Shown here: positions 2,041 through 62,806 of the stretch, piece by piece
Layout of the letters: every line of letters begins with the position of its first letter
How positions within the stretch are numbered: position 1 is the first letter of the stretch
Assembly (NCBI GenBank): GCA_036012755.1
Contig: DASCPX010000190.1
Span: 32,001-96,000 of the forward strand
DNA: 64,000 nt
Direction of reading: 5' to 3'
Origin: Myxococcota bacterium
GTDB lineage: Bacteria > Myxococcota_A > UBA796 > CAJQPC01
Translations under genes and position numbers: made by a program
Notes under the pieces: generated by a model
Database searches by the model: none
The model's input: the letters and a program-made list of their open reading frames with translations, nothing else
Told to the model about the DNA's origin: nothing

Positions 2041-2640
2041 ATGACCCTCCCCCGCCGCACCCAGGCAGAGCGCAGCGCGACCACACGGTCGGCCCTGTTG
2101 AAGGCGACCGTGGAGACCCTCGTGCACAGCGGTCACCGGGGGGCCACCAACGCCGAGATCTGCAGGCGGGCCCGGGTCTCGAGGGGAGCCCTGCTCCACC
2201 ACTACGCGACCAAGGCAGAGCTCTTCACGGCGGCTGTCGAGCACCTCTTCGAGCTCCGCCACGCGGAGCTGAGGCGGCTCGATGAAGAGGTCCCCCCGAG
2301 CCAGCGGGTCGACGAGGCCTTTCGTCGTCTCTGGGCGATCTACGCAGGCCCCACCAGCGTCGCCTGGATGGAGTTGGTCATCGCCGCCCGCTCGGATCCG
2401 GAGCTCCGGGCCCGGCTCCAGGAGGTCAGCCTTCGCCTCGAAGAGCGCGCCGAAGACACCCTGAGCCGGCTCTTCGGCCTGTCGAGCAGCGTGCCCGCCC
2501 GACCCGGCATCCGCATGGTCCTGGCCCAGCTCGACGGGCTGGCCTTTCACCACCTGCTCCACGGTGACGAGCAGGCGGCGACCGAAGCCCTGGCGCTCTT
2601 CAAGGCGCTGGTCGAGCCCTTCGTCCAGGAGGCCCGGTGA
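2041..2640 (+). CDS. TetR/AcrR-family transcriptional regulator
   Basis: RRTQAERSATTR..ICRRARVSRGALLHHYATKAELF N-terminal HTH. Confidence 0.92.
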   Translation: MTLPRRTQAERSATTRSALLKATVETLVHSGHRGATNAEICRRARVSRGALLHHYATKAELFTAAVEHLFELRHAELRRLDEEVPPSQRVDEAFRRLWAIYAGPTSVAWMELVIAARSDPELRARLQEVSLRLEERAEDTLSRLFGLSSSVPARPGIRMVLAQLDGLAFHHLLHGDEQAATEALALFKALVEPFVQEAR

Positions 2641-3815
2641 TCCTGCTGTTGTCCTGTACGAACACACAGTGGGCCCCCGACGCGGTGCTCCCCCTGCTGG
2701 CACTGCCCGGCTGCAATGCGGTCAGCGTGGTCGAGGGCGCCTTCGTCCCGCAGGGGAGCGAGCTCACGGCCAGCCCGGAGCCCTGCACCGCCCCCTTCCA
2801 CGCCACCGCGGGGGCCCGGGACAGCACGCTGCTCATCGAGTCCGACGCCGAGCTCCGCATCGAGGATCTCGCCGGCGGGTCCCTGTCCAACCCCGTCGTC
2901 CTGCAGCGCAGCGGCGAGGTCCTCGTCCACGTCGACGCCACGGACACCTACTGGCTGAGCGTCACCTGCCTGGAGGGCTGCGAGGCCGAGTACACGCGCT
3001 ACCCCGTGGTCCTCATGCACGGCATGGGCGGCTCGGACGCCTTCGGCGGCGTGCCCTACTTCTTCCGGGTCGAGGAGACCCTGGAAGAGCTCGGCTTCGA
3101 GATCCAGGCACCTCCAGTCACGCCCTTCGCCACCGCCGCCCAGCGCGCTCCAGAGTGGGAAGTGCACCTCGAGCTGCTCCGAGCAGAGGGAGTCGGCCGC
3201 AAGTTCAACCTGCTCGGCCACTCACAGGGCGGGCTGGACGCTCGCTACCTCGTCGGCGGCCTCGGTCGCGCCGATCTCGTCGCCTCGATCACCACGGTCG
3301 GCTCCCCACACCAGGGAACCCGCACCGCGGACTTGATCTACGGCGTGGTCGAGGACGGCACGGTCGATGCCGCCTGGGTGGACGTCGGGGCAGAGGTCTT
3401 TGCGGCCTTGTTCGGCCTCGAGGGCGACGACAACAGCCTCGTCGAGGCCATGGAAGGGCTCACGACCGAGGCGATGGCCGAATTCAACGAGACCGTGCCC
3501 GACGACCCCGAGATCCCGCTGTGGTCCTGGGCCGGCGGGACCTGCGGCGCCCTCGAGTTCGACTGCCAGCAAGCTCGCGACGGAGAGATCGTCGATCCCC
3601 TCCTAGCTCCCACCTGGCTGATCCTCTGGCTCGACGGCCAGGACAGCGACGGCATGGTGCCCATCGACTCGGCGACCTGGGGCACCTTCCTGGGAGAGCT
3701 GAACGCGGATCACGCTGATTTGGCCGGCATCTTCGAGGACGAGGCCACCGACGCCTTCGACCACCTCGCCTTCTACACCGACGAGACCCGGCGCCTCCAC
3801 GCCCAGGGACTGTGA
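2637..3815 (+). CDS. Lipoprotein triacylglycerol lipase/esterase (alpha/beta hydrolase)
   Basis: MILLLSC signal; TRYPVVLMHG, GHSQGG nucleophile elbow, SPHQGT, SDGMVP, DHADL. Confidence 0.88.
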   Translation: MILLLSCTNTQWAPDAVLPLLALPGCNAVSVVEGAFVPQGSELTASPEPCTAPFHATAGARDSTLLIESDAELRIEDLAGGSLSNPVVLQRSGEVLVHVDATDTYWLSVTCLEGCEAEYTRYPVVLMHGMGGSDAFGGVPYFFRVEETLEELGFEIQAPPVTPFATAAQRAPEWEVHLELLRAEGVGRKFNLLGHSQGGLDARYLVGGLGRADLVASITTVGSPHQGTRTADLIYGVVEDGTVDAAWVDVGAEVFAALFGLEGDDNSLVEAMEGLTTEAMAEFNETVPDDPEIPLWSWAGGTCGALEFDCQQARDGEIVDPLLAPTWLILWLDGQDSDGMVPIDSATWGTFLGELNADHADLAGIFEDEATDAFDHLAFYTDETRRLHAQGL

Positions 3816-4222
3816 TGAACACGGACGACGTCCTCCAGCAGACCTTCCAGGCCTGCCCCTTCCACCGCTACCTCCGCGCCGAACTCCGCGTCCTCGAGCC
3901 GGGTCTCGTCGAGGTCGAGATCCCCTGGTTCGAGGATCTGGACCAGGCCATGGGCAGGCTGCATGGCGGCGTCTACGCGGCCTTGCTCCACGCCTCCAGC
4001 TACTACGCGGCCCTGAGCGCCTAGGCGTCGCTGAGCCAGCTGCCCCTGACCCAGGAGTACAAGATCAACCTCTTGCGCTCCGTGGAGAAGGAGCCGCTGG
4101 TGGGCCGAAGCCGCGTACTCCAGGCCGGACGCCGGGTCGCGGTGGTGGAGACCCGCATCTCCAGCCCCAGCGTGGAGCTCGCCGCGATCGGCCTCAGCAG
4201 CCTGGTGATCCGCACACGCTGA
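3812..4222 (+). pseudogene. PaaI-family hotdog thioesterase interrupted by in-frame TAG (4022-4024)
   Basis: GRLHGGVYAALL before the TAG; the same frame continues TQEYKINLLRSVEKEPLVGRSRVLQAGRRVAVVETRI to TGA at 4220-4222. Confidence 0.8.
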
Positions 4223-4226
4223 GGGC

Positions 4227-5030: not shown

Positions 5031-5180
5031 TCGGACAACAGCGCCGCCGCCAGCTCCTCCGCGTCGAGCTTCCAGTCCTCTTGCTGATCCTCCGTGTAGC
5101 CGTCGCCGACGAGCACGATGTCCAGCCGCTGTGCGGAGGGACCCGTCGAGTGCAGCGTCTCCCAGACGCTCCAGGCCCGG
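5025..5180 (-). pseudogene. Fragment of peptidase M64 (IgA protease-like) N-terminal region
   Basis: ETLHSTGPSAQRLDIVLVGDGYTEDQQEDWKLDAEELAAALLSEEP, in a different frame from the downstream domain and with no start codon. Confidence 0.6.
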
Positions 5181-5209
5181 CGAGCGGCCGCTGCGGTTAT
5201 CGGCGGACA

Positions 5210-6208
5210 ATGCTGACCATCCTCCTGGCCTGTACACCGAGCGCGACCCCGGACTCGGACCCGGCGACCGACGACTCTGTCGCCTCGATCCCGGACAACT
5301 GCGACCTGCAGCCCACGGGCGAGGTCAGCCTGCCCGCGGACGAGGCCCCTCACGGCGAGGACGTCGAGTGGTGGTACTGGACCGCCCACGTCCAGGACGA
5401 AGAGGGCCGCTGGTACGGCATCGAGGAGACCTTCTTCCTCATGCAGATGGGCACCTACACCGCCACCAGCGCGCACGTGGCCGTGGCGGACATCTCGGCG
5501 GGCACCTTCACCTACGACGTGAACTTCGTCATGGAGGGCCAGGAGAGCACCACCGATGGCTTCGACCTCGTCTCGGAGCAGCAGACCGCCACCGGCAGCG
5601 ACGGCCAGGAGACCCTCCACGGCGAGATCGATGGCTACACCCTGGACCTCGAGCTGAGCGCTTCGAAGCCCCCCGTCTTCCAGCACGGCGACGGCTACCA
5701 CGACTACGAAGTCGGCGGCTACACCTGGTACTACAGCCGCGAGCGCATCGACACGACCGGCACGCTGCTGGTGGGGGAAGAGAGCCGCGCCGTGGAGGGG
5801 CTGGCCTGGATGGACCACCAGTGGGGGGACCTCGGGGACATCTCCACGTCGGGCTGGGACTGGTTCGCGCTGCAGCTCGACGATGGCAGCGAGGTGATGC
5901 TCTTCCTCACGCGGGGCTCGGACACCCTGGTCGGCGGGTCCTTCACGGACTCTGGCTGCAACACCACCGAGCTGGGGCCAGAGGACTTCCAGGTAGAGGC
6001 CCTCGGCGAGTGGACCAGCCCAGCCACGGACTGCACCTACCCACAGGGATGGAGGCTCGAGGTCCTCGGCAAGGATCTGACCGTCACCCCCGAGCTGGCC
6101 GACCAGGAGGTGGACAACGTCATGAACACCTACTGGGAGGGGGCCTCGGTGGTGAGCGGCGATCTCTCAGGTCGCGCCTACGTCGAGCTCGCTGGCTACT
6201 GTCTCTGA
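5210..6208 (+). CDS. Lipoprotein, AttH/CrtC-like lipocalin-fold hydrolase
   Basis: MLTILLAC; PH..VEWWYWT, YYS, G.AWMDHQWG, GWDWFALQLDDG, YWEG, GRAYVELAGY. Confidence 0.85.
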   Translation: MLTILLACTPSATPDSDPATDDSVASIPDNCDLQPTGEVSLPADEAPHGEDVEWWYWTAHVQDEEGRWYGIEETFFLMQMGTYTATSAHVAVADISAGTFTYDVNFVMEGQESTTDGFDLVSEQQTATGSDGQETLHGEIDGYTLDLELSASKPPVFQHGDGYHDYEVGGYTWYYSRERIDTTGTLLVGEESRAVEGLAWMDHQWGDLGDISTSGWDWFALQLDDGSEVMLFLTRGSDTLVGGSFTDSGCNTTELGPEDFQVEALGEWTSPATDCTYPQGWRLEVLGKDLTVTPELADQEVDNVMNTYWEGASVVSGDLSGRAYVELAGYCL

Positions 6209-6940: not shown

Positions 6941-7068
6941 CGATACCTCCTGCCCACAAGGTGCCCACATCCGGGCCCTGCATCGCTACGAAACCGAATA
7001 AGTACCCGATTCCGGTCCTCCTTCGTGGCCTCAGGACCTAAACGACTACAGATTGCCCGGAGGAAGGC

Positions 7069-10626: not shown

Positions 10627-10639
10627 GTCGCGCTCCTCT

Positions 10640-10657: not shown

Positions 10658-10677
10658 TCCTTCGACGCGGAGATCCC

Positions 10678-11765: not shown

Positions 11766-13061
11766 TCAGTCCGCGGGTACGGCCAGCACGACGTTCAGGT
11801 TGGCGGTGCTGGTCGTGCCCGTCGGGAGCTTGCCGTCCTGGTGGGTGCCACCGCTGGAGACGTGCTCCTCCGACTCGTTGACGACGCCGTCGCCGTCCTC
11901 GTCGGCGTAGGCCCACAGGTACGCGATGCTGTTCCCTGGCACCCGCAGGCTGTAGCTCACCGAGGACTGACCGCTGAGATCCGCCCAGGAGAAGGTCTGC
12001 ACGTCGTAGGAGTTGTCCTCCAGGGTAGAGATCGCCACGTCACCGCTGGGCCGGTACTTCAGGGCCATGACGTAGACCTCGGAGCCGGTGGGGAGGTCGT
12101 CGAAGACACCGTCGTAGACGCTCACCTCGCCACTCCAGCTGACGAAGGGCACGATGTTGATGCCGGACTCGTCGCCCAGCGGGACCTGGATGTCCATGCC
12201 CGTGAGATCCGCATCACCGACGGTGATGGGGTTGCCGTCCACGTCAGGCTCGGAGACGTAGGCCCCCCACCTGTCGAGGGGGTCGGCCATCTCGTTGCCG
12301 TTGCTGTCCCACGCGGCGATGAGCGCCATCGGGCCCCAGTCCACGCAGCTGGACAGCGTGTAAGCCGCCTCTGCGCCCCCGCCGGTGGAGACGGGATCGA
12401 TCCAGACCTCGTGGTAGGGGCCCAGCCCTTCCTGGTCGCGCAGCATCGCCATCGCCTCGCCCCCGGCGTAGCTGGCGGTGATGATCACGTCCCCCGAGAT
12501 GGTCATGACGTCGCCGGGGCAGCCCCCGGGCGTGTAGCACTCCGGTACGAAGATCGTGATGTCGGCGCCCTCGTGCTCGCCGTCCGCTACGACCTCGATG
12601 GTCTGAGGGTATGCCCCCACGTAGTCGTCGGTCCCGATGACCCGGTCTCCCCAGTAGTCCACGACCGCGTAGACCTGCACCGGCCCCGCGTGCTCCATGG
12701 AGAGCGCGAGGGAGAAGTCGTTCTCGCCGGTGGTGGGCTCGCGGATGACCTGCTCGGCCAGGTGGTGCTTGCCATCAGGGCTCTCGTCCTCTTCGTAGGC
12801 GGTGACGAAGATCCAGCCGAAGGGGTACTCGTCCCCGCAGGTCGAGTCCGCCCACTCCACGCTCTCCCTGGTGCCGTCGGCGCCCGTGCGGGTGACCACC
12901 ACCGACACCGTTCCCTCCACGGTGGCTTCGATGGGACCCGACTCGGAGTCGTCGCCGCCCTGCTCGGAGTCGGGCTCGGAGTCCGGGCTCGCCTCGCTGT
13001 CGTCAGCGGGTGGGGTCCAGCCGCAGCCAACGACCAACAAGGACAACAAGAAACCGGGCAT
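11766..13061 (-). CDS. Acidic lipoprotein with three internal beta-rich repeats
   Basis: LLVVGC lipobox; repeats AVVDYWGD / AAWDSNGN / AYADEDGD; TATACT -10 and GGAGG SD upstream. Confidence 0.75.
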   Translation of the reverse strand: MPGFLLSLLVVGCGWTPPADDSEASPDSEPDSEQGGDDSESGPIEATVEGTVSVVVTRTGADGTRESVEWADSTCGDEYPFGWIFVTAYEEDESPDGKHHLAEQVIREPTTGENDFSLALSMEHAGPVQVYAVVDYWGDRVIGTDDYVGAYPQTIEVVADGEHEGADITIFVPECYTPGGCPGDVMTISGDVIITASYAGGEAMAMLRDQEGLGPYHEVWIDPVSTGGGAEAAYTLSSCVDWGPMALIAAWDSNGNEMADPLDRWGAYVSEPDVDGNPITVGDADLTGMDIQVPLGDESGINIVPFVSWSGEVSVYDGVFDDLPTGSEVYVMALKYRPSGDVAISTLEDNSYDVQTFSWADLSGQSSVSYSLRVPGNSIAYLWAYADEDGDGVVNESEEHVSSGGTHQDGKLPTGTTSTANLNVVLAVPAD

Positions 13062-13127: not shown

Positions 13128-16100
13128 TCAGTCCACAACCACCCTGTCGGTCCCGCTGCGGCCGAAGGTCTCCGGGTGGTACATCTCCTCCGCCTTCGCG
13201 GGAGGCACGACGAACTCGCCCGGCGTGGTGGCGACGGCCACGTAGCTGTAGTCGTAGACCCCGGCGTACAAGAGCGTCGTGAAGGCCTCGGCCCGCTCGT
13301 CCCGAAGGTTCTGGTGCTGGTACCAGGTGCCCCACCACCACCAGTTGCCGCTCTCGGCGCTGGGGTCCTCTGGCAGCGTGCCGGTCACGGCCAGCTCCGG
13401 GTTCTGAGCCTCGAGGCCTGCAGGGAGCGGATCCACCAAGGCCACGTAGGTCCGTCGGCCCTCGCTGACCATGCTCACCCGGACCCTCACACGCGCACCA
13501 GCGGCGATGTGCCAGACACCGTCGTCGTCCAGGGTCACGTCACCCTCGTCGTCGATGGGCTCGTACACCCGGGTCACGACGAAGCCACGGTCAGCGGGCT
13601 CGAGGTCGAGGTCCTTTGGCGCGTAGCGCATGCCGATGCGGTAGTAGAGCCGCCCCTCGCCGTCCTTCTGCAGGACGAGGTCGTCGTCGCGGAGCTCGGA
13701 CATGGGGATGTCGATCCGCGCTCGATCGGGGCTGTAGCCCTCGAACTGGCGTGATCCGGCGTAGTCCTCGCCCAGCCAGGCCCGAGCCACGAAGTCCGGC
13801 TCGGTGGACTCGTAGGTGCGGAAGTAGCGGTTCATCGCCAAGAGCACGAAGGAGTTCTCCTGCGTGGTGGACCAGCGCCCGGCTACGCGGTGCCCGAGCA
13901 GGCTGCGAACCACCTTCGGCACCAGATCGTGCTCGGGTCGCACCTCGATGAGGGACTCCAGCACCACCGCGTCGGTGCGGCGGCTGGAGTGCAGGAGCAC
14001 GTAGTCGTTGGTGTCGCCGTAGGAGGTGACGAAGTGGGCCGCCCCAGCGGTCTCGGAGACCTTGTTCTCCAGGTTGCGGATGATGAGCGCGACGGACTCG
14101 GTCTGGCCCTTGGCCTCTAGCGTCGGGAGGATCCAGGCCTGGGCCTCCAGGCTGAGCTCGGACAGCGGGACCTTCGCCAGCTTCCTGGCGCGGCCTGCGT
14201 CGTCGTCGCCATCGAGGTGCCGGACATAGACGCTGTAGGCGATGATGTTCCGCCTGGCGCGCTCGCTGTAGTAGTGCGGGATGTGGCTCTCGATCTTGCG
14301 GAGGTAGCCCATCGCCGCATCGAGGGTGCTGTCGCTGACCGGGTACCCGGCCTCCTTCGCCCTCACCAGGCTGTGGGTGACGTGCACGGTCAGGTAGGGC
14401 TCGTCTGACATGTCGGACCAGAAGGACCAGCCGCCGTTGCCCTTCTGACGCTTCTCCAGACGCTGGAGGTCCCGGCTCACGGCCGACTCCAGCTCCGCCT
14501 GCGAGGGCAGCTCTTCTGCCTCGAAGGCCTCGAGGACATCGCGCAGGGCTGCCACCGCCATGACCCTCGAGCCGATCTGCTCGCTGCAGTCGTAGGGGTA
14601 GTTGGCCAGGTAGATCACAGCGTCGGTGAGCGCCGACAGAGCGGTGCTCGAGGTCGTGATCTCCAGCCCGCCGAACTGCTCCCAGACGTCATCCGGACGT
14701 GCCACCGGCTGAAGGATGGCCCCCTCGTCGATCTCGCCGTAGGTGGCGAAGGCCTCGCTGGTCGCTGGGGTCCAGACCGGGAGGGTGAAGCGCGCGGCGT
14801 CGCTCATCCCACCGCTCTGTGCGACCACCTGGAAGCGAGCGGTGCCCGCGGCGTCTGCGTCGAGGGGAAGGCGGACCTCGCGACGGTCGTTTGCAGGCAC
14901 CGTGAAGCGGCGTCCGCGGTTGTCGGCCGAGATCACGATGTTCGTGGTCTCCACGGCGAGCTCCACCACCATGTCCTCGTCCGTCTGGTTCTGGACGACC
15001 AGCGGCAGCTCGACGTGGTCGCCGAAGTTGAGGAAGCGCGGGGGCGAGGGCCGCAGCATCAGCGGCTTGCGTGCCACGACAGTGGCCTCTCCGTGGCCGA
15101 AGGAGATGTCGTCGGCAGCCACCGCCATGATGCGGTAGCGGGTGAGGCTGTCGGGCAGCTCCAGGGTGAGGGTGGCCGTTCCGTCGGCTTCGGTCTGCTC
15201 CCGCGGGGCGAACAGCGCGATCGCGCTGAAGTCCTCTCGCACGGTGATGGGCGAGGCCTGGCTGTGGCCCGAGGCCTTGTCCTTGCTTCGCGACTTCTTC
15301 TCGGGCTTGGCCGCCGACATGGGTTCCATCGGTGGCGAGGCGATCTTCGAGCTCGTCCTGATCTCCTCCTCCTCCATGGCGTACCCGATCCCATCGAGCA
15401 TGTCGAAGTCGTCGCTCTCTCCGGCGCTCCCGGTCGGTTGGGCGACCACGGCGTTCGGATCACCCAACACGACCAGTCCGCGGAGGTGGGTCTCGGCCAC
15501 TCCCGCCGCGCGGCTCATGTAGAAGATCTCGAGGGGATCGGGCAGCTGGTAGGCGCTCAGCGCGAGCACTGCCTCGTCCACGGCGATCAGGGCGACCTCG
15601 GCGCCTTCAACGGGCTTGCCTTCGCTGTCGTTGACCTGGACGGTCACGGTGGTCGACCCCCCTGGGCCGAGGTGGGTCTCGGCGGGGACCGGCTCGACGG
15701 ACAGAGCGCGGGAAAGCGGCGGCACCTTCAAGTCCAGCATGCCGCTGGCATAGGCGACCCGGTTCGACCGGTCGGGCATGGGGTTGCCCTCGTCGTCGGT
15801 TCGTTCCCGCGAGCCGACGAGGTCGACCTCGACCACGATGTTCGGCACAGAGGCCTCTGTGATCGGGACCTCCAGCACCTTCGAGGCAGAGTCCATGGAG
15901 AAGGCCCGGGTCTCGACCAGGCCATCCCGCCGCAGGGTCAACAGCCCATGTGCGGGGGCGAAGGGCGAGAGCACGAGGACCTCGGCCACGTCGCCAGGGG
16001 CGTAGATCTCGGCGTTCGGGACCAGGGTCACCTCTTCCATGGCGACGGACCGGTCGGGGGCCTGCTCACCACCGGTGATCCACACGGTGAAGCTGGTTGT

Positions 16101-19073
16101 GTTCGGCCTCCCCTCCTCGTCCACGACCGTCGCGCTGATGCGGTGGTTTCCACCCTGCTCCGGCTCGAAGACGCAGGTGTCCGCCTTGTCCTTCAGCTCG
16201 AGGGTGCAGTCGACCGGGTCCTCCTCGATCTCGGCCCAGGCTCCGTCGAGATTGCCCCACCTCAGGCGGGACAGCGTCAGGGTCGCCTCGGCGGCGACCG
16301 GCTCACCGTCGATGTCGACGACGATGACCTCTGCCCGGATGGGCTCGTCCTTCTCATAGAAGGGCTTGTCGGGCTTCACTCCGACATAGAGGCTGGAGGG
16401 GTGGACCAGGAAGGTCTCCTGGCGGCTCCAGCGCTGGCGGTTGACGTCCACGACCGTGGCCTGTGCGCTGACGGTCATCGGACGAGCCGGGTTCACCGCG
16501 AGGAAGTCGATCTGCAGGTAGTGGTTGCCCGCGGCGTCCGTGCTCCCCTCGAGGGACTCCACGCTGGACTGCCCCCAGCTCCCGCCCCAGTGGTACCAGC
16601 TCCACCAGGGAGTCCAGCTCCCGAAGCGCCAGTCGCTCCAACCCTGGGGCTGGAAGCTGCCCTCGCTGGCAGAGACCGTCCAGGTGACCGGTGCGTCCGG
16701 GAGCGCGCCGCCGGAGTAGTAGGCGGCGTTGACCGAGACCACGGCGCTCTCGCCCAGCACGTAGCTCTGGGGGTCCAGGCTGGTCGTGACCTCGAACTCG
16801 GGGCGGCGGAACTCCTGCACCTGGAAGGAGTGGTAGTGACTGCCTCGGCTGGAGTTCAGCTCCAGGCTCGCGTAGCCCAGCGCGGGGGTGTCGGGCAGCT
16901 CCAGCTCGAGGTCGAAGCCACCGTGCTCGCTGAGGTCGGTCTTGCCCTTGCTCATCTCGTTGCCGTAGGCATCCCGCGCGACCCAGGTCACCTCCTCGGG
17001 TGCTCCTGCGAAGGACTGCAAGGCGCTGCCAGGCTCGATGACGAAGGGGCGCACCCAGCCCTTGACGTAGACGGTCTCGCCGGGCCGATACATCTTGCGG
17101 TCGTCGATGACGTACCAGACCAGGCTGTCGATCGGTCCGCTGTGGGTCCAGCCGCCGTACTCGTTCCACCAGTGGGGGTACTCGGGCAACAGGGCCACGT
17201 CGTCGCCGAGCTCGGCGACCAGGGCGTGGGGGCCAGTCGAGCTGTCGTAGCCCTTCAGCACCGCCACTCCGTCGGCGTCGGTCTCGCCGCTGGAGTCGCC
17301 GCCGAGGAGGCTCAGCTTCACACCGGCGAGGGGCTCGCCGCTGCCGAGGTCCGTGGCCCAGCCCATCACAGACGGCTGGTCGGCGAAGGCGGTCAGGCCG
17401 ATGTCGGTCGCCTGGACCCATGCCATGACCCGAGTGGGGTACTCCTCGCGCACGGTCGGCTCGACCCACACGAAGAGGTGGCCCTTGCCGCCCTCGAGGT
17501 AGGGGCCCAGGTCGATGGAGGTCTCGACGAGTTCGTTCTCGACGTAGTCCTCTACCTCGACGCTGCCGTCGAAGACCTTCTCCCCCGGGGGCATGCCGCG
17601 GAGGTAGCCGTCGTAGACGACGTCCCGCATCCAGTCGCTCACCGCCTCGTAGTCGGAGACCTCGACCCTGGTGACGCGCACGCGGAGCCTCTCGTAGTTC
17701 GTGCTCCAGACAGAGAACGCGGGCGGCGCCGCGGGGTCCAGCGCGAGCACGGCGGTGTTCGGGCCCTGGAGCTTCGGCCATGCGGGGCCGACCTTGAACT
17801 TGCGGGTCTGCTCCTTGGCCAGCCTCTGGCCGAAGGCGTCCGGGAGCCCCGCCTCGACCGTCACGGTGTAGGTCGTGTCCGAGACCGTCTCACCGTAGAT
17901 GGTCAGGGTGCTCCAGCTGGCCGTGACCTGCATGTGCTCGATGGCGGGCTCGACGCTGACCATGGAAGGGTCCAGCGGCTGATCGAGCTCATTGTTGAAG
18001 TACAGCCAGAAGGGGGAGTCGGGGGAGCAGTGCTTGGGTCCCTCGCTGCAGTCCTGGCTCTCGAGCTTCAGCGGGTCATAGGTGCGGAAGCCGCTGACCT
18101 GGCGCTCGGTGGTGGTGCGCGGCCCCTCCGCCGAGGGGGCCCCCTTGTCCAGGACCCAGCTGTAGTCGGTGGCTGCCTTCAGCGGCGTCATCGGGCGCAG
18201 GAGGAAGGCTCGGCCCTCCTCGAACTGGCGGTTCTCCAGGTAGGGATCTGCTGCGATCTCCTCTTGTCTGGCCTTTCGCAGGGGCACGACGGCGCCGTCA
18301 CCCTCGAGGGTGAGGTGCGAAAGCACGCCGTCGTCCACCCGCTGATCGAAGGCGACCAGGAGGACGGGGGTGAGGCCCACCTGGGAGTACTGCTGGGGGT
18401 ACCACTCGGTGACGCTCACCGGGGGCGTGGAGAAGCTGAAGGAGTCTCCGGTCTCCGGAATGGTGACCTCGTAGTCCGTGGCCATCGGGAAGCGAGGATC
18501 GGGATCGAAGACGATGGTGCGCGTACCCAGCCAGCGCCACTGGCCGTCCGGCTCGGGGCTCAGCGTCACGGGGATGGTCTGGGCGGCTTCGTCCTGGGTG
18601 GTCACGGCCACCATCGGCTGGTTGAAGGTGACGCTCATCGACGGCGCCAGGCCCACGTCACCCTCTGGCGAGGTTCGAACCACCTTCACCGGGCCGGGAT
18701 CGACCTCGACGGCTTCGAGGTCCGTGGGCGGTGGCGGCCAGCCCAACAGCTCGGTGGCGCCCGTGCGCGGAGGAGGGACCGTCTCCTCTCGTCGAGCGAA
18801 GGCGCGCCGATCGCCCTCTGGCTCTTCGAGCCGCTCGGCGCGGGCCAGCAGGGCCTCGACCTCGGCAGCTGTGAGGGCCTCCACCTCTGGTTCGGGGCCG
18901 CTCTCCATGGCTCGCGGAGCCGTCGGGCGTTCCGCCTCGGACAGCCGCATCTCCAGGCCGACGAGATCCTCTGCCGCGGGGTGGAAGTCGATCTGCGGCA
19001 CCGGCTCGGGCGTGACGATCGGGCTGTCGGGCTCGACCCTGTTCTGGCAGGAGAGAGCAACGAGAAGGAGCAT
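13128..19073 (-). CDS. Bacterial alpha-2-macroglobulin lipoprotein with N-terminal Ig-like (Big_5) domains
   Basis: 1981 aa; DRKMYRPGETV, FRRPEFEV, LPDSLTRYRIMAVA, thioester YPYDCSEQ, DPLPAGLE, PAKAEEMYHPE. Confidence 0.93.
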   Translation of the reverse strand: MLLLVALSCQNRVEPDSPIVTPEPVPQIDFHPAAEDLVGLEMRLSEAERPTAPRAMESGPEPEVEALTAAEVEALLARAERLEEPEGDRRAFARREETVPPPRTGATELLGWPPPPTDLEAVEVDPGPVKVVRTSPEGDVGLAPSMSVTFNQPMVAVTTQDEAAQTIPVTLSPEPDGQWRWLGTRTIVFDPDPRFPMATDYEVTIPETGDSFSFSTPPVSVTEWYPQQYSQVGLTPVLLVAFDQRVDDGVLSHLTLEGDGAVVPLRKARQEEIAADPYLENRQFEEGRAFLLRPMTPLKAATDYSWVLDKGAPSAEGPRTTTERQVSGFRTYDPLKLESQDCSEGPKHCSPDSPFWLYFNNELDQPLDPSMVSVEPAIEHMQVTASWSTLTIYGETVSDTTYTVTVEAGLPDAFGQRLAKEQTRKFKVGPAWPKLQGPNTAVLALDPAAPPAFSVWSTNYERLRVRVTRVEVSDYEAVSDWMRDVVYDGYLRGMPPGEKVFDGSVEVEDYVENELVETSIDLGPYLEGGKGHLFVWVEPTVREEYPTRVMAWVQATDIGLTAFADQPSVMGWATDLGSGEPLAGVKLSLLGGDSSGETDADGVAVLKGYDSSTGPHALVAELGDDVALLPEYPHWWNEYGGWTHSGPIDSLVWYVIDDRKMYRPGETVYVKGWVRPFVIEPGSALQSFAGAPEEVTWVARDAYGNEMSKGKTDLSEHGGFDLELELPDTPALGYASLELNSSRGSHYHSFQVQEFRRPEFEVTTSLDPQSYVLGESAVVSVNAAYYSGGALPDAPVTWTVSASEGSFQPQGWSDWRFGSWTPWWSWYHWGGSWGQSSVESLEGSTDAAGNHYLQIDFLAVNPARPMTVSAQATVVDVNRQRWSRQETFLVHPSSLYVGVKPDKPFYEKDEPIRAEVIVVDIDGEPVAAEATLTLSRLRWGNLDGAWAEIEEDPVDCTLELKDKADTCVFEPEQGGNHRISATVVDEEGRPNTTSFTVWITGGEQAPDRSVAMEEVTLVPNAEIYAPGDVAEVLVLSPFAPAHGLLTLRRDGLVETRAFSMDSASKVLEVPITEASVPNIVVEVDLVGSRERTDDEGNPMPDRSNRVAYASGMLDLKVPPLSRALSVEPVPAETHLGPGGSTTVTVQVNDSEGKPVEGAEVALIAVDEAVLALSAYQLPDPLEIFYMSRAAGVAETHLRGLVVLGDPNAVVAQPTGSAGESDDFDMLDGIGYAMEEEEIRTSSKIASPPMEPMSAAKPEKKSRSKDKASGHSQASPITVREDFSAIALFAPREQTEADGTATLTLELPDSLTRYRIMAVAADDISFGHGEATVVARKPLMLRPSPPRFLNFGDHVELPLVVQNQTDEDMVVELAVETTNIVISADNRGRRFTVPANDRREVRLPLDADAAGTARFQVVAQSGGMSDAARFTLPVWTPATSEAFATYGEIDEGAILQPVARPDDVWEQFGGLEITTSSTALSALTDAVIYLANYPYDCSEQIGSRVMAVAALRDVLEAFEAEELPSQAELESAVSRDLQRLEKRQKGNGGWSFWSDMSDEPYLTVHVTHSLVRAKEAGYPVSDSTLDAAMGYLRKIESHIPHYYSERARRNIIAYSVYVRHLDGDDDAGRARKLAKVPLSELSLEAQAWILPTLEAKGQTESVALIIRNLENKVSETAGAAHFVTSYGDTNDYVLLHSSRRTDAVVLESLIEVRPEHDLVPKVVRSLLGHRVAGRWSTTQENSFVLLAMNRYFRTYESTEPDFVARAWLGEDYAGSRQFEGYSPDRARIDIPMSELRDDDLVLQKDGEGRLYYRIGMRYAPKDLDLEPADRGFVVTRVYEPIDDEGDVTLDDDGVWHIAAGARVRVRVSMVSEGRRTYVALVDPLPAGLEAQNPELAVTGTLPEDPSAESGNWWWWGTWYQHQNLRDERAEAFTTLLYAGVYDYSYVAVATTPGEFVVPPAKAEEMYHPETFGRSGTDRVVVD

Positions 19074-48045: not shown

Positions 48046-48073
48046 TCCTTTCACCTTGATTCGAGTGCGCATC

Positions 48074-52791: not shown

Positions 52792-55023
52792 ATGCTCGCG
52801 CTGCTCGCCCTCCTCACTCCGCAAGCCTCCCACCCCGACAACGACGCAGACATCAAGGTCGAGGGTCTGGACGCGCCGGTGACCATCCATCGCGATCGAT
52901 TCGGTGTGCCCCACATCCGCGCCGAGACCGAGCACGACCTCTGGTTCGCCGTCGGCTTCGTGCACGCCCAGGACCGGCTGTGGCAGATGGACCTCGTGCG
53001 GCGGCTCGGGGCCGGACGCGTGAGCGAGTGGCTGGGCGAGGACGCAGTGGAGTTCGACATCTTCATGCGCTCGCTGGAGCTGGAGGAGCGCTACCAGAGG
53101 CGAACGCCGGCGGTCGATCCGGAGATCATCGCCATCGGAGACGCCTACGCCGCTGGCGTGAACGCTGGTGCGGCCTCGCTGCCTGCCCTGCCGGTCGAAT
53201 ACCGCATCCTGGGCGTCGACTTCGAGCCCTGGGCGAGGACCGACGCGATGTCGGCGAGCGTCATCAACTCGTGGACGCTCTCCGAGAACGCTCCAAAGGA
53301 GCTGATCACCCTGCTCTTGAAGGACAGGCTCGACGCCGAGCGTCTCGACGCCCTGTGGCGCTGGGATCCCGAGAGCCCAGAGGTCGACGCCTACTGGGAC
53401 GAGCTCCGCACCTGGGACATCGCGCCGCTGGATGCCCCCTTCGGCGGCCTCGTCGAGTTCCTGTGGGGGGTACACGACCCCACCGCGTCGAACAACTGGG
53501 CCGTGTCCGGGTCGCGGACGGCGGACGGCGAGCCGATCCTCGCCAACGATCCCCACCTGCCGCAGATGGTGCCGAGCGTCTGGTACGTCCTGGAGGGCTC
53601 GGGCGGAGACGTGCACATCGCCGGTGCGTCGCTGGCAGGCACACCCTTCCTGGCGACCGGGCACAACGAGCGCGTCGCCTGGGGCGTGACCAACGTGATG
53701 GCCGACTACGTGGACCTGGCCATCGTCGAGAGGATCGGAGAGGACCGCTACGTGCTCGAAGGGGTGGAGAAGACCCTGCGGCCCGTCTCCGTACAGGTCG
53801 AGGTGAAGGACGGCGAGCCAGTGGACGGTCTCGTCCATTGGACCGAGATCGGACCGGTCATCTCCACCCTGGAGGGCTCGCATCTCGTCGTGCTGCGCTG
53901 GAGCCTCTTCGAGGTGCCAGACCAGACGGCCCCGATGTGGCTGGAGATCCAGAAATCCAGGTCGGTACAGGACGTCGTCGAGGCTGCGAAGCGGCCCTCG
54001 ATGATGGCCCAGAACCTGGTAGCGGCGGACGTCGAGGGCCACATTGCCTGGCAGGCCTTCGGTGGGGTGCCGCGCCGCAAGAACCACACGGGACGGGTCC
54101 CCTACCCGGCGTCGGATCCGGACAGTGGCTGGGAGGGCTGGATCGAGGATCTGCCAGGCGCCGTCGATCCCGCGGAGGGCATCCTCCGCACGGCGAACTC
54201 GCGCCCGGACCATCCCGACGCATGGGCCATCTCGACGTCCTTCATCCCGGACTGGCGAAGTGACCGCATCGCCGAGGTCCTGCTGTCTCGAGACGACCAC
54301 ACGGTGGCGACGATGGAGGAGCTCCAGCGCGACGAGCTCGACACCCACGCGCCCTTCCTCATCCCAATCCTGCTCGACGGCGCCGAGCTGAACCGCTGCG
54401 GGGAGCTCCTGCGGGACTGGGACGGAGACTCCGACAAGGACCGCATCGAGCCCCTGTTGTGGGCCGTCTTCCAGGGCGAGCTCATCGAGGAGGCGTTGCT
54501 GGACGACCTCGGTCCCGGCGGCTTCCGGCTCTACTCGGCGGCGGCGATCAGCGGGCGCTCGGTCCTCGATGTGGACGTCTCCGCCTGGGTCGACGACCAA
54601 CCTGCCGCTGTGGAGGCCGCCCTGGAGCGGACCTGTGAGCGGGTGCACCTGGAGGACACGTGGGGAGCGAGCCACCGCCTGCACATCCGCCACCTGTTCT
54701 CCGACCAGGCGGCGATCCTCGAAGACTGGAGCATGCCAGCGGCACCCTGGGGGGGCTCTCACAACACGGTGAACCAGGCAGGCTACAGCTGGTTCAACGA
54801 CGAGCTCGACGCGACCTGGATCGCGAGCATCCGCGTCGTCACTCCGCTCTCGGACGTCGGCCGCGCCACCTTCACCTACCCGGGCGGCCAGAGCGGCATG
54901 CCCCACCATCCGCACTACGACGACCTCTTCGCCCCCTACGTCGAGGGGGACTCACACCCGCTCTGGTTCTGGGACGAGGACGTCGAGCGCGAGGCCGTGG
55001 AGACCCTGCGCCTCAGCCGTTGA
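52792..55023 (+). CDS. Penicillin acylase/AHL-acylase family Ntn hydrolase
   Basis: RDRFGVPHI, HAQDRLWQMD, ASNNWAV, LANDPHL, TAN, PGGQSG. Confidence 0.93.
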   Translation: MLALLALLTPQASHPDNDADIKVEGLDAPVTIHRDRFGVPHIRAETEHDLWFAVGFVHAQDRLWQMDLVRRLGAGRVSEWLGEDAVEFDIFMRSLELEERYQRRTPAVDPEIIAIGDAYAAGVNAGAASLPALPVEYRILGVDFEPWARTDAMSASVINSWTLSENAPKELITLLLKDRLDAERLDALWRWDPESPEVDAYWDELRTWDIAPLDAPFGGLVEFLWGVHDPTASNNWAVSGSRTADGEPILANDPHLPQMVPSVWYVLEGSGGDVHIAGASLAGTPFLATGHNERVAWGVTNVMADYVDLAIVERIGEDRYVLEGVEKTLRPVSVQVEVKDGEPVDGLVHWTEIGPVISTLEGSHLVVLRWSLFEVPDQTAPMWLEIQKSRSVQDVVEAAKRPSMMAQNLVAADVEGHIAWQAFGGVPRRKNHTGRVPYPASDPDSGWEGWIEDLPGAVDPAEGILRTANSRPDHPDAWAISTSFIPDWRSDRIAEVLLSRDDHTVATMEELQRDELDTHAPFLIPILLDGAELNRCGELLRDWDGDSDKDRIEPLLWAVFQGELIEEALLDDLGPGGFRLYSAAAISGRSVLDVDVSAWVDDQPAAVEAALERTCERVHLEDTWGASHRLHIRHLFSDQAAILEDWSMPAAPWGGSHNTVNQAGYSWFNDELDATWIASIRVVTPLSDVGRATFTYPGGQSGMPHHPHYDDLFAPYVEGDSHPLWFWDEDVEREAVETLRLSR

Positions 55024-56335: not shown

Positions 56336-56341
56336 ATCGGA

Positions 56342-57283
56342 TCACCGCAGGCGGTGGTTTAGCACCAGCTCCCTGCCGACCACGACCTCGATGGTGACGG
56401 CCTCTGTCGGCGGCCTGAACTCGCGCGCCGTAGCCTCCGCCAAGAGCCGTCCGTCCTCGTCGAAGGCGGACCACTCGCGCAGGGGCTCACCCTCGTCCCA
56501 GCCCTCTGCTGGCGCCCTGAACACCTCTCCGAGCTGGAGCTCCGCGCGGAACTCGGTGGTCGGATGGACAGCGGCGCTGCGTCCGGGCTCGAAGAACGCG
56601 GCCTCGAGCGGATCGTCCCGCCAGTCACAGTGGACGTGGGAATCGTAGTAGCCGACGTAGCCAGCGCCGAGGTCCTCGCAGATCTCGCCGAGGTCGCCGA
56701 GGCTTGCGCTCGAGGACTTCATGTCACAGGCGTCCCCGTACATGTGGCGGCTGTACTCCGCGCCCCCCACCGAGGCGTTGTAGCTGACGTTGCGGTAGCC
56801 CGAGTTGACCGTGACGGCCCCGCCCACCCGGTCGCGGATCTGCTGCATCCTGGCCACCGCGTGGGGTTGGTAGATGGCGAAGCGGCCCTTCCACTCCTGC
56901 ATGAACTCGTCCACCACGAAGTTCGGCGCGAGCGCGAGGTCAGGATCGGCGGCGCTCAGATCGATGAACCGAAGCGGCTTCAGGTACTGCGAGGAGCCGT
57001 TGTAGGGGTCCGGGTAGTCGTAGTCCGAGCCCCACGCGTCGTCCCAGTCGACGACCTCGAGACAGGTGGTCCAGCTCTCGTCCGCCCCGGGGAAGCAGGC
57101 CTCCTGCCCGGAGGGATCCGGCTCGATGGGCTCTCCCGTGTCGCCCGTGTCTCCTGGACCGGTGTCCTCTGGAGGCTCGCGCTGGTCTTCGATCTCCTCC
57201 GTGTCGTCGGGTCCCGGCGGCCCCTGGCGTGGAGGCCGGGTCGTCGTGTCGTCCGAGGCCACACAGGCGAAGAGCAGGATCAC
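56342..57283 (-). CDS. Lipoprotein, peptidase M15A (D-Ala-D-Ala peptidase-like)
   Basis: MILLFAC; NF..DEF, VNSGYR..N..VGGA..SRHMYGDACD, HVHCDWR. Confidence 0.88.
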   Translation of the reverse strand: MILLFACVASDDTTTRPPRQGPPGPDDTEEIEDQREPPEDTGPGDTGDTGEPIEPDPSGQEACFPGADESWTTCLEVVDWDDAWGSDYDYPDPYNGSSQYLKPLRFIDLSAADPDLALAPNFVVDEFMQEWKGRFAIYQPHAVARMQQIRDRVGGAVTVNSGYRNVSYNASVGGAEYSRHMYGDACDMKSSSASLGDLGEICEDLGAGYVGYYDSHVHCDWRDDPLEAAFFEPGRSAAVHPTTEFRAELQLGEVFRAPAEGWDEGEPLREWSAFDEDGRLLAEATAREFRPPTEAVTIEVVVGRELVLNHRLR

Positions 57284-59784
57284 CGCAGACTCCCACCGTC
57301 GTGGGCCAAGGTCGTGCCGTCTTCGTAGAAGAGCCGCTCTTCGACGAAGGAGCCGTCCGGAGCGAAGAAGCGCAGGGCGCCGCTGCCATAGCCGACGACG
57401 GTTGATCCATCGCCACGCTGAACGATATCACTGACTTGGGAGCCATCTCCGGCCAGTCCAGCGAGCACCTCACCTGTCCTGACGTCGACGAGGAAGACAA
57501 AGCCGCTGGAGGTACCGACCGCCGCGACGTTGCCACCAGGAGCGCTGGTGAGGCCGGGGATCTGCGCGCAGCGATGGGCCACCTGGCCGAGCGTGCTCAG
57601 GTCGGACTCGAAGACCCTGCCGGCCGGATCGACGATGAAGAGCGTGGACTCGGAACCCCACCCGTACTCGGCGGCGAGGACGCGCGAGCCGTCCGGACAG
57701 TCGACGATCGGACCGCTGAGCGCCCTCCTCTGGCGCCGCTTCAGCTTCGCGCCGGGCACGTCCATCTCCCACCCGAGCGAGCGGGACTCGTCGACGTCCC
57801 ACGCTGGGGGGCCCTCCTGCCTCTCCCCGGTCGAGAGATCCCAGGCGTAGCGCGGTGCCTCGCCAGACTCGGCGCCCACCCCTGCGAGGCTGCCGTCTGG
57901 CAGGAAGGCGAGCTCCAGCACGCCCTCGTCGGAGAGCACGCGGGTGGCCCCGGTCTGTGGATCGAAGACCCGCACCCCGAAGGCATGGGAGACGGCGATG
58001 CTGCCCTGGTGCTCATCGATGCCCCAGACCTCGGGCAAGGCACCGGTGAGCACATCGAGGCTGTCGCCGTTGGACCACACGACCTGTCCGAGCGTGTTGG
58101 CCAGCAGCAGGCCGCCCCCGCCGTCGACGGCCAGGCTCGTCACGGAGCTCCCCATCGTTCCACCACCCCAGGTGACCTCGCCAAGCGAGGTGCCGTCGAG
58201 GTCGCGTGCCTCGGCCTGTCCCTCCCAGTTCATCAGCGCGACGGCGCGGCCATCTCCGGAGATGGCGCCGAGCACCGGGCTCTCGTAGGCCGTGTCCGCG
58301 TCGTCACCCTCTGGCCGCCAGAGGTGTGCACCGGTCGAGTCGACGACCACGACACCGTCATCGACCACGCGCAGCGCGGTCGGAATGCTGCCCCACACCT
58401 CGACGGGATGGCGCGTGGCCAGGACAACGCCGCTCTCAGCGTCCCAGAAGGTGATGTTGCCGCTCCAGTCAGCGGTCACGAGGCGGGTCCCTCCGTGGCC
58501 GACCGCGAGGAGACCCGGAGGCGTCATGGGGAGCTCCGCGACGAGCTCGCCGTCACTGCTCCAGGTCCGCAGCCAGGAGTCGGAGGCGACCGCATAGCTG
58601 GCGTCAGGGCCCACCGCGACAACCGTCTGGGACGTCGAGCCCGGAACCAGGCCCCCGATGCGCTCGCCGGTAGAGAGGTCGATGCGCTGAGCGGCCCCCT
58701 TGTCGTCGGCGACCAGCACCCAGGACAGCTCCGGTGAGACCGCCACTCGCTGGGTTCCCCAGCCGGCCTGCACGGGCAGGTGGTGCCGACGTCGAATGGC
58801 CCCCGTGTCGAGGTCCCAGACGACGGCGTCGCCATCGCTCCAGACAGCGAGCCCCCGGTCTCCGGGGACATCCACCGCGAGGACGAGGGCCGGGCTGCCA
58901 GGCGCTGCGCCGAGCTCCAGCGGAGGCCGAACCGGGACCTCGTGGACCTGGACGATGCCGTCCATCATCGCGACGGCGATGCGGTCCTCTTCGGGGCTGA
59001 AGGCCATGGACTGGACCATGCCCGTGCCACCTCGAAGCGTGGCTCGAAGCTGGCCGGTCTGGTGTTCCCAGAGCTCGACGCCGGAGCCGCTGGCGTCGAC
59101 GACCGCGACCAGGTCCGCGCTGGTCGCGAAGGTGGCGCTGGAGCCGTTGCCAAAGCCCAGGGTCCGGCGGCTCCCATCCAGGCCGACATACTCGCTGGCC
59201 CGACCGTAGTCGAAGAGCACGAAGCCGTCGCCGGCGGGCTTCACCGCCCAGCCCGCGGCGTTGGTGTGGAGCACCGTCTCGCCGCTGAGTGCATAGATGT
59301 GGAGCCGTCCGTTCTCCCAGAAATACGGAGTGCCGTCGAGGTACCCGAAGGCGTCAGGGCCGTTGGCCCAGAGATCCGTGGCCACGACGCGCTCGGCCCC
59401 GTCCACGTTGCGCTCCAGGAGCCCACCCGCGGAGACCAGGTAGCGCCCGCCCTCTCCCGCGACGACCACGGGGACGGACCAGCGGTCGGGCTTGGGCACC
59501 TTGGCCAGCCGCTTCCCGTCTGTCACGTCGTAGAGGCCAGGGCGCCCTCGCCAGGACTGGGTGGAAAGCAACGCCCCGTCCGCGGACAGCGTGATGTTGC
59601 TGGTGTTGAAGCCAACGTCGAAGCTGCTGATCTCGTTCAACTCTTCGTCATAGACACGGACCAGGCCAGAGGAGCCGAGCGCCGCGATGTGGTCCCCTTC
59701 CCAGTGGAGGATCCAGGTCGGATCGAAGGTGGTCTCGACGACATGCAGCGGCGCCGCGAAGGCCGTGCTCAGCAGCAGGATCAT
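57280..59784 (-). CDS. Exported WD40-repeat beta-propeller protein
   Basis: MILLLSTAFA; repeats VQSMAFSPE..DG.V, DG..VVWDL, G.ITFWD. Confidence 0.8.
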   Translation of the reverse strand: MILLLSTAFAAPLHVVETTFDPTWILHWEGDHIAALGSSGLVRVYDEELNEISSFDVGFNTSNITLSADGALLSTQSWRGRPGLYDVTDGKRLAKVPKPDRWSVPVVVAGEGGRYLVSAGGLLERNVDGAERVVATDLWANGPDAFGYLDGTPYFWENGRLHIYALSGETVLHTNAAGWAVKPAGDGFVLFDYGRASEYVGLDGSRRTLGFGNGSSATFATSADLVAVVDASGSGVELWEHQTGQLRATLRGGTGMVQSMAFSPEEDRIAVAMMDGIVQVHEVPVRPPLELGAAPGSPALVLAVDVPGDRGLAVWSDGDAVVWDLDTGAIRRRHHLPVQAGWGTQRVAVSPELSWVLVADDKGAAQRIDLSTGERIGGLVPGSTSQTVVAVGPDASYAVASDSWLRTWSSDGELVAELPMTPPGLLAVGHGGTRLVTADWSGNITFWDAESGVVLATRHPVEVWGSIPTALRVVDDGVVVVDSTGAHLWRPEGDDADTAYESPVLGAISGDGRAVALMNWEGQAEARDLDGTSLGEVTWGGGTMGSSVTSLAVDGGGGLLLANTLGQVVWSNGDSLDVLTGALPEVWGIDEHQGSIAVSHAFGVRVFDPQTGATRVLSDEGVLELAFLPDGSLAGVGAESGEAPRYAWDLSTGERQEGPPAWDVDESRSLGWEMDVPGAKLKRRQRRALSGPIVDCPDGSRVLAAEYGWGSESTLFIVDPAGRVFESDLSTLGQVAHRCAQIPGLTSAPGGNVAAVGTSSGFVFLVDVRTGEVLAGLAGDGSQVSDIVQRGDGSTVVGYGSGALRFFAPDGSFVEERLFYEDGTTLAHDGGSLR

Positions 59785-59791
59785 GTGAACC

Positions 59792-61630: not shown

Positions 61631-61735
61631 GGTGACTCCAGGAAAAAGGGGCAAGACGGCCCGTCCCACGTAGCGTGCCAATCACCGCCTCGCCGCAACG
61701 GCGCGGGTCGACCAGAGCCGGGCTAACTTCTGCTC

Positions 61736-62806
61736 ATGCTCGTGCTGCTCCTCGCCTGCAACAAGACCTCACTCGAGCTCGCCTGGCAGGAGGGCCTCGA
61801 GCTGGAGGACCCGGCCATCCTCGCCGACGAGGGCCTCATCATCACGGTCTCCGAGATGACCATGCGCGGCATGGACGCGGCCAGCGGGGGCACCCTGTGG
61901 AGCGCCGAGTTGCCCGAGGGGGTCGGCGGCGCTCCGGTCGTGACCGACGACGACGAGATCCTCCTGTGGAGCGAGATCGGGATCTTCGGCTTCGACACCA
62001 CCGGCGAGGTCGTCTTCTCTCGCAACGCGGAGATGTTCGTCGAGGTCGACCCGGCGGTCACCGCCGACGGCACCATCCTCGTGATGGGCGAGAACCTCGA
62101 CAAGGACGCGGCGGTGCTCACGAAGATGACGACCGACAGCGGCGTGGTCTCCCAGGTCGAGTTCGCCGAAGGTCACCCCCTCACCCAGCCCGCCATCGAC
62201 AGCGAGGGCAACATCTACGTCGTGCTCACCACCGACGGCACGGTCTTCACGCTGGTCTCCCTCGACGCGGAGGGAGAGCTGCGCTGGGAGGTGGAGCTCG
62301 CCGAGGGCATCGACGGCAGCGCCGAGATCATCCCGTACGCCGGACTCTGGCTGGTCTCGGGCGGCGTCCTGCAGGAGCTCGACCCAGCCACCGGCGAGGT
62401 CCTCGACGACGACGAGGGCGTCTACGTCACCTTCGACGACGAGGGGGCCATCATCCGCTCAGAAGCGCAGCTCGAGATCGAGAACCGCGACGAGGCGGCC
62501 ATCGAGTTCCCGAACCTCACCTGCGGCCACACGGCCGTGGACGTCGAGGGACGCATCTACGCCGCCTGCGCGATGCCGAACGACCCGGGGCGCACCATCG
62601 TCATCGACCTGCGCGAGAAGGTCCGCATCGGGGACCCGGCGGAGTGGGCGGGGGAGACCCAGCTCGCCTCTCCGCTGTTGTGGGAAGACCTCGTCATCTT
62701 CCGCCTGGACGCCGGGCTGATCGCCTACAGCGGCGCCGCGCCCCTCGCGGAGGACGCCTGGGCTCGCAGCCGCGGGGGCCTCCGGAACCAGAACCGGGCA
62801 CCTTGA
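61736..62806 (+). CDS. PQQ-like beta-propeller lipoprotein
   Basis: MLVLLLAC; G..LW repeats, PAIDSEGNIYV, W..SRGG..N. Confidence 0.75.
   Translation: MLVLLLACNKTSLELAWQEGLELEDPAILADEGLIITVSEMTMRGMDAASGGTLWSAELPEGVGGAPVVTDDDEILLWSEIGIFGFDTTGEVVFSRNAEMFVEVDPAVTADGTILVMGENLDKDAAVLTKMTTDSGVVSQVEFAEGHPLTQPAIDSEGNIYVVLTTDGTVFTLVSLDAEGELRWEVELAEGIDGSAEIIPYAGLWLVSGGVLQELDPATGEVLDDDEGVYVTFDDEGAIIRSEAQLEIENRDEAAIEFPNLTCGHTAVDVEGRIYAACAMPNDPGRTIVIDLREKVRIGDPAEWAGETQLASPLLWEDLVIFRLDAGLIAYSGAAPLAEDAWARSRGGLRNQNRAP

Follow-up and report, generated by a model that had tools for sequence, protein, structure and literature searches.

Hundreds of putative lipoproteins of a Myxococcota bacterium begin with ultra-short, uncharged signal peptides

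We found that about one gene in eight in the genome of a Myxococcota bacterium (assembly GCA_036012755.1; GTDB lineage Bacteria; Myxococcota_A; UBA796; CAJQPC01) begins with an uncharged signal of 5–10 residues in front of a lipobox. The starting point was a 64,000-nt stretch of contig DASCPX010000190.1 (positions 32,001–96,000), hereafter the window, in which an earlier note had listed ten ultra-short, uncharged N-termini, nine of them with a Cys at residue 7–10, and had suggested that the lineage may use a non-canonical mode of export or lipidation. All ten lie where they were reported and on the reported strands, with GTG as the start codon at 2637 and 57283 (genes are named here by the position of their start codon). 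A gene caller built on codon usage alone, blind to signal peptides, picked exactly these ten starts; it predicted 5908 genes (91% coding) in the host genome (6.73 Mb, 68% GC, 96% complete), and 9 of the 52 genes called in the window encode a lipobox Cys at residue 7–10 (Table 1).

The feature proved to be as systematic as the earlier note had claimed. Across the genome, the frequency of Cys peaked at residues 7, 8, 9, and 10 (196, 313, 233, and 173 of 5397 proteins, respectively, against about 75 elsewhere). With a lipobox filter, we identified 720 proteins with the Cys at residue 6–11, compared with 82 canonical basic signals with the Cys at 15–35, and such a short lipobox followed 720 of the 5689 called starts, whereas just 85 of 73015 internal ATG or GTG codons were followed by one. 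The filter itself bars charge in the six residues before the Cys, and the scarcity of K/R in the filtered set (6 of 720 signals) is partly set by it; the word "uncharged" therefore rests on the unfiltered count, in which the first Cys fell at residue 7–10 in 849 of 5355 proteins, was preceded by A, G, or S in 691 of them, and had no K/R before it in 756.

The filtered short signals have a median of 7 residues before the Cys. The residue at −1 was Ala in 518, Gly in 113, and Ser in 89, Leu occupied −3 in 456, and −2 was mostly Leu, Ile, or Phe, departing from the lipobox consensus. Leu made up 47% of the short signals versus 25% of the canonical signals of the same genome. Each short signal carried about five large hydrophobic residues whatever its length, and all-hydrophobic cores became rarer than expected as length grew (10 seen versus 35 expected at Cys9; 1 versus 9 at Cys10). 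The net charge over the 20 residues after the Cys was −3.3 for short signals and −3.2 for canonical ones; because the two are the same, the acidic early mature region is a precondition rather than a special adaptation. A rough filter also returned 376 short candidates of the signal peptidase (SPase) I type (about 7–15 residues) against 143 canonical-looking ones, although the cleavage sites in these sets are guesses.

Such N-termini might arise if starts were mis-called and the real proteins, initiated upstream or at unusual start codons, carried normal signals; the earlier note had itself named upstream starts as a way to overturn its proposal. We examined this with in-frame stops, taking cytoplasmic genes as the reference: for a gene whose true start lay upstream, a stop in frame within 15 codons of the Cys would be impossible. 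A stop that close was present in 147 of the 720 genes, where 129 would be expected if all called starts were true and none if all lay upstream. These 147 cannot reach a Cys at residue 15 with any codon, and this rate refutes mis-calling as an explanation of the whole class. No upstream start codon was available in 401 of 720 genes, and 170 starts overlapped the stop of the previous gene. The coding score was negative upstream and positive from the called start, the upstream codons were non-hydrophobic, and a GGAG motif peaked at −9 to −12, so that the Shine–Dalgarno spacing fits as it does in cytoplasmic genes. For homologs of CpoB, independent gene calls in databases give the same short starts. 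On the other side, atypical codon use is frequent at 5′ ends, and an upstream start giving a Cys at residue 12–40 exists in 192 of 720 genes, with a basic extension in 89 of these; because of these alternatives, some single start calls may be wrong, but the class is not. Overall, we regard the short-signal starts as real with near certainty, and mis-calling as very improbable.

The same holds for most of the individual window genes. In seven of the ten (2637, 19073, 43972, 46728, 57283, 61736, and 59784) no in-frame ATG, GTG, or TTG lies upstream. The pinning described in the earlier note was found as described: at 2637 a GTGA overlaps the stop of a TetR gene (2041–2640), at 43972 an ATGA overlaps the stop of the 43088 gene, at 57283 a GTGA overlaps the stop of the 59784 gene, and upstream of 61736 an in-frame stop is separated from the start by three sense codons. 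The alternatives for 5210 (20 and 43 codons upstream) and 43088 (GTGs 21 and 30 codons upstream) are distant and run through non-hydrophobic sequence. The 48045 gene is ambiguous, since an ATG 9 codons upstream (48072) would give a basic, canonical-looking signal of 17 residues; it is a window example of the cases that favor mis-calling.

The proteins behind the short signals resemble exported proteins. In the mature part, K+R amounted to 0.052 in short-signal proteins and 0.059 in canonical lipoproteins, against 0.111 in cytoplasmic proteins, and D+E to 0.194, 0.183, and 0.143, respectively. With the lipobox Cys left out, the number of Cys residues was even in 70% of 515 short-signal proteins and 77% of 60 canonical lipoproteins, compared with 47% of 1569 cytoplasmic proteins, a parity that bears the signature of disulfides and leaves the first Cys unpaired. 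A transmembrane-like segment was present in only 2% of short-signal proteins, and a short-signal paralog existed for 21 of 79 canonical lipoproteins versus 62 of 2053 cytoplasmic proteins. Envelope proteins that have to leave the cytoplasm also carry such leaders: BamA has 13 uncharged residues and a GTG start that overlaps an upstream stop, CpoB has its Cys at residue 8–9 and a start that overlaps the pal stop, and several OmpA-family and Omp85 proteins have uncharged leaders of 10–14 residues. Pfam families, composition, Cys parity, and CpoB thus indirectly indicate the extracytoplasmic mature domain typical of lipoproteins, and we consider it highly probable that short-signal proteins are exported and lipidated.

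Alternatively, these proteins might be exported and perhaps lipidated but remain uncleaved, the short hydrophobic N-terminus staying in the membrane as an anchor. Two points speak for this: cleavage itself is deduced rather than directly observed, and 6–9 residues are too short to span the membrane as a helix. Nevertheless, the −1 residue is the A, G, or S that LspA requires, the genome encodes LspA together with Lnt and LolA, both of which need a cleaved Cys, and LspA cleaves a lipopeptide with only five residues before the Cys in vitro (PMC6952399, excerpts). An uncleaved anchor is accordingly quite unlikely, and because LspA accepts five residues, no special cleavage enzyme would be needed.

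The window passengers with Pfam matches are of the envelope type, including alpha-2-macroglobulin, CrtC lipocalin, MopE-like repeat, M15 peptidase, PQQ_2 propeller, and penicillin amidase families (Table 1). Two short-signal genes, 13061 and 52792, were absent from the list of the earlier note. Orthologs of the M15 peptidase have the Cys at residue 7–9 in three relatives, and a fourth has several possible starts; those of the 59784 propeller carry uncharged signals of 14–16 residues, one of them pinned by a stop; and the ortholog of 61736 in the same genus has Cys8. The fold of the 43088 protein resembles domains fused to carbohydrate-binding or dockerin proteins, and an atlas search returned no named family for it. 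Lipoproteins with MopE-like repeats, of which the 43972 protein is one, form a very large family, and each of five relatives contains dozens of DNA matches to it. Many members have C-R-N-K right at the lipobox, a possible sorting motif. In the small protein at 47572–48072, the lipobox is followed by a repeat rich in His and Asp; the protein also has a weak phage-collar-like match, and its short and canonical starts could both be used.

Table 1. Short-signal genes of the window, with positions counted from the first nucleotide of the stretch.
Predicted product	Coordinates	Strand	Signal	Remarks
Alpha/beta-hydrolase lipoprotein	2637..3815	+	2637-2657, Cys7	GTG start; Pfam Palm_thioest/Abhydrolase_1; no upstream start
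CrtC/lipocalin-domain lipoprotein	5210..6208	+	5210-5233, Cys8	
Lipoprotein	11766..13061	-	uncharged, 12 residues, Cys13	No upstream start; no Pfam family
Bacterial alpha-2-macroglobulin lipoprotein	13128..19073	-	19047-19073, Cys9	Pfam A2M, MG2, bMG10, A2M_BRD; no upstream start
Lipoprotein	43088..43975	+	43088-43111, Cys8	No Pfam family
MopE-like metal-binding-repeat lipoprotein	43972..46254	+	43972-43998, Cys9	PF11617 x5; no upstream start
Endonuclease/exonuclease/phosphatase-like lipoprotein	46728..47570	+	46728-46757, Cys10	Pfam score below curated cut-off; no upstream start
His/Asp-rich small lipoprotein	47572..48045	-	48019-48045, Cys9	Start ambiguous
Penicillin-amidase-family protein	52792..55023	+	about 12 residues, uncharged, SPase-I-like	PF01804; no upstream start; stop 10 codons upstream
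M15 peptidase lipoprotein	56342..57283	-	57263-57283, Cys7	GTG start; PF08291
Beta-propeller protein	57280..59784	-	59755-59784, 10 residues, uncharged, SPase-I-like	
PQQ_2/BamB-like propeller lipoprotein	61736..62806	+	61736-61759, Cys8	PF13360

We investigated the distribution of the trait with a DNA pattern encoding Met, five hydrophobic residues, and Ala-Cys, for which reversed-pattern controls gave 0–3 matches. This genome contained 74 matches, and 19 of 66 genomes of its order contained at least 20. Outside the order but within the same class, 24 of 25 genomes had three or fewer, the remaining one had six (five from one repeat), and none reached 20. A stricter pattern with six hydrophobic residues gave at most two matches in 341 genomes outside the order and up to 14 within it, although its power is low, with only four matches in this genome. 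Gene calls in 200–400 kb samples agreed: among lipobox proteins, the Cys fell at residue 6–11 in 21 of 26 in this genome, 19 of 30 in G033, 8 of 24 in G024, 6 of 16 in G004, 5 of 15 in G006, 3 of 11 in G145, and 2 of 10 in G036, against 1 of 11 in four pooled outgroups (400 kb). The short-signal trait is restricted to a single order, within which it forms a gradient. A tree of SecA from 31 genomes placed high-load genomes among low-load ones (families f1, f7, f6, and f4), suggesting that shortening was repeated or reversed within the order, although the deep nodes of the tree are weakly supported. Database records that show the trait, or that contain close homologs, are filed as metagenome-assembled genomes of Myxococcota, Deltaproteobacteria, or Pseudomonadota.

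CpoB provides an orthologous series. Across relatives, the start of the mature protein is constant while the signal ranges from 8 uncharged to 28 basic residues; the signals of 8–9 residues in this genome contrast with basic ones of 15–28 residues in relatives. Of 74 database homologs, 66 could be scored, and in these the Cys fell at or before residue 11 in 37 (34 without K/R) and at or after residue 15 in 23 (19 with K/R). The N-termini of BamA were unreadable in several relatives owing to long linkers or contig ends. In many relatives (L093-L122), long Pro/Ala/Glu-rich linkers lie between the BamA signal and the first POTRA domain, and there is none in this genome (L054). The signal of the Pal-like lipoprotein (L055:793-1518 in this genome, and L123-L152) is canonical and basic, but many order members have Lys or Arg just before the Cys (A-S-K-C, A-A-K-C, or A-S-R-C), outside the lipobox consensus.

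The genome encodes SecA, SecY, SecE, SecDF-YajC, YidC, Ffh, FtsY, signal recognition particle (SRP) RNA, Lnt, LolA, Def, and Fmt, along with three SPase-I-family genes, five Lgt, and two LspA; SecA and SecY are single copies. Loss of SRP is ruled out by the Ffh M domain found in 30 of 30 genomes and by Ffh, FtsY, and SRP RNA in this one; the SRP RNA gene lies 2.5 kb beyond the window end (C190:98495-98590). An extra SecA or SecY paralog is ruled out by the copy numbers. A tblastn search with E. coli SecB detected no homolog, a result that we do not take as meaningful. No SecA column distinguished the 14 high-load genomes from the 9 low-load ones, and six order-wide SecA losses have no meaning known to us; a literature search on the signal-groove residues of SecA yielded nothing relevant. 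Ffh showed three columns differing between high and low load, not convincing for so few independent lineages, and SecE, found in 24 of 30 genomes and inspected by eye, showed no convincing difference. With this complete ordinary machinery, the part of the earlier proposal that stands is the lineage-wide, short, and uncharged character of the signals, and a non-canonical export or lipidation mode gains little from it.

A dedicated route, in which a specialized Lgt/LspA paralog pair, YidC, or an unrecognized targeting factor captures the hydrophobic N-terminus, is unlikely, although no search was aimed at a new factor that follows short-signal load. The multiple Lgt, LspA, and SPase-I-family genes might suggest one, and the Lgt active sites are not of the E. 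coli type: all five copies keep R143, R239, R246, and Y235, but they have Cys or Asp for Glu151, two lack the Gly154 region, and no E. coli-type Lgt was found in the genome. The Lgt loci lie on C59, C203, C40, and C127, with a lspA-lspA-lgt-lgt tandem on C59. Yet Lgt is present in 3–6 copies in all 41 genomes regardless of short-signal load, which rules out its expansion as the cause. Tandem lspA next to lgt is also the arrangement of the Myxococcus xanthus lspA1-lspA2-lgt operon (PMC8689077, excerpts), and because those excerpts mention no short signals in M. xanthus, it does not explain the trait. Substrates of SPase I and of SPase II alike carry short signals, and on one and the same protein these form a continuum with canonical ones.

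Among the machinery proteins that the earlier note had proposed to inspect, a single lineage-specific change fell at a position known to matter for gating. SecY position 187, Ile in E. coli and in 7 of 7 same-class outgroups, was Ala (18) or Ser (12) in all 30 order members, and this loss is one of only five order-wide losses among the 182 columns shared by outgroups and E. coli. Phe192 is mostly Thr in the order, and the other five pore-ring residues are kept. I187 belongs to the SecY isoleucine ring (PMC2171872, excerpts), and pore-ring changes cause the prl phenotype (PMC3164448, excerpts); I187A/S is such a substitution in the pore ring, plug, or lateral gate region that characterizes prl-type translocons. 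Of 30 order genomes, 26 matched a codon pattern for the altered motif (GNG[A/S]S), as did 3 of 191 genomes outside the order. No SecY feature convincingly separated high from low short-signal load, and the change, being order-wide, would be at most permissive.

Our preferred explanation, which we consider probable, is that these are minimal signals on the ordinary Sec/Lgt/LspA route, possibly helped by SecY187, and that no new pathway is involved. Met, about five large hydrophobic residues, and [A/G/S]-Cys would act as a minimal Sec signal peptide, which has lost its n-region and has its h-region and lipobox fused in a single leucine-dense stretch; the precursor would be exported via SecA/SecYEG, lipidated by Lgt, and cleaved by LspA. 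The order-wide Ala or Ser at SecY187 may lower the threshold for channel gating, and the acidic early mature region may set orientation in place of a basic n-region. Because short signals of any length contain about five large hydrophobic residues, we infer a narrow range of hydrophobicity, enough to open the channel and too little for capture by SRP or for stop-transfer. Once tolerated, signals could have shortened gene by gene, to differing degrees per genus.

Several observations weigh against this explanation. In each of the 24 genomes aligned, Pal has retained a canonical basic signal of 19–25 residues. Asn146, which is essential in E. coli Lgt, is replaced by Cys in all five Lgt copies, and only one copy has His103; this N146C subtype is widespread in unrelated phyla (also according to excerpts of PMC13251419), and one such enzyme is presumed to be weak. 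SecY187 is also changed in low-load order members (e.g., with 0–2 pattern matches), and the three outside genomes with GNG[A/S]S, not verified as SecY, contain 0, 0, and 4 short-signal matches; the change is thus not sufficient. In the excerpts of PMC2171872, I187 is not among the named prlA positions G69, I191, I278, S282, and I408, and these five are unchanged or nearly so in the order (S282 is Ala in 6 of 30). Finally, the trait marks one clade, so that the link to SecY rests on one evolutionary event. A contribution of SecY187 to the use of short signals is therefore put forward only tentatively.

It is a real though lesser possibility that no change in the machinery was needed at all. A leucine-dense signal of seven residues followed by an acidic mature region might work on any Sec translocon, the clade having drifted or been selected toward the short end and SecY187 being an unrelated marker of it; this differs from the preferred explanation only in the role of SecY. 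In E. coli, extra hydrophobicity can replace the charge of the n-region. SecY187 does not track load, SecA, Ffh, and SecE lack convincing differences between high and low load, and a few short signals occur even in low-load members and outgroups. Conversely, heavy loads were found only inside the order with Ala or Ser at SecY187 (at least 20 matches in 19 of 66 genomes versus 0 of 25), and E. coli SPase I signals, with a median of 22, have a minimum of 15–16 residues (PMC5963308, excerpts).

Compared with E. coli Lpp-type signals (lipobox [LV][ASTVI][GAS]C), the short signals share a hydrophobic stretch ending in [A/G/S]-Cys and a polar tether rich in Pro, Asp, and Thr after the Cys. They also share with canonical lipoprotein signals the exported-type passengers and the encoded Lgt, LspA, Lnt, and LolA, and the same mature proteins have canonical signals in relatives. 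They differ in length (median 7 versus 16–26 residues; PMC8689077, excerpts), in lacking a basic n-region, in the overlap of h-region and lipobox, and at −2, where Leu, Ile, or Phe mostly stands instead of Ala or Ser. Likewise, the SPase-I-like leaders of BamA, the OmpA family, and window genes 59784 and 52792 share with canonical signals a hydrophobic core, an A-x-A-like site, and a polar mature start, but at about 7–15 residues without an n-region they lack the tripartite n-h-c structure of at least 15 residues. The parallel with E. coli prlA suppressors is that cells using minimal signals have a smaller residue in place of a pore-ring isoleucine; the change differs here in lying outside the named prlA positions, in being natural and fixed across an order, and in having a putative effect. 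Literature searches, which did not cover subscription papers, returned no description of such short uncharged signals. We thus regard them as a variant that lacks two defining features of canonical signals, the basic n-region and the length, and is canonical by every indirect sign.

In its boldest form, which is rather doubtful, the argument would hold that SecY Ile187Ala/Ser is a naturally fixed "prl-like" translocon that lifted the rules on n-region and length, leaving the shortest natural Sec signals, of 6–13 uncharged residues, on hundreds of lipoproteins and even on BamA. If that were true, the order would offer ready substrates and a single residue for probing what a signal peptide minimally does. 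The PROSITE lipoprotein rule places the Cys at residue 15–35, and most lipoproteins of the order would escape rule-based annotation that insists on a late Cys together with a basic residue. If the signals work, natural signal peptides can do without the n-region and without most of their length: an essential outer-membrane protein, BamA, would be exported with 13 residues against a reviewed floor of 15–16 plus a basic n-region, and the CpoB series, with the same mature protein behind signals of 8 to 28 residues, would give a direct route to the signal minimum.

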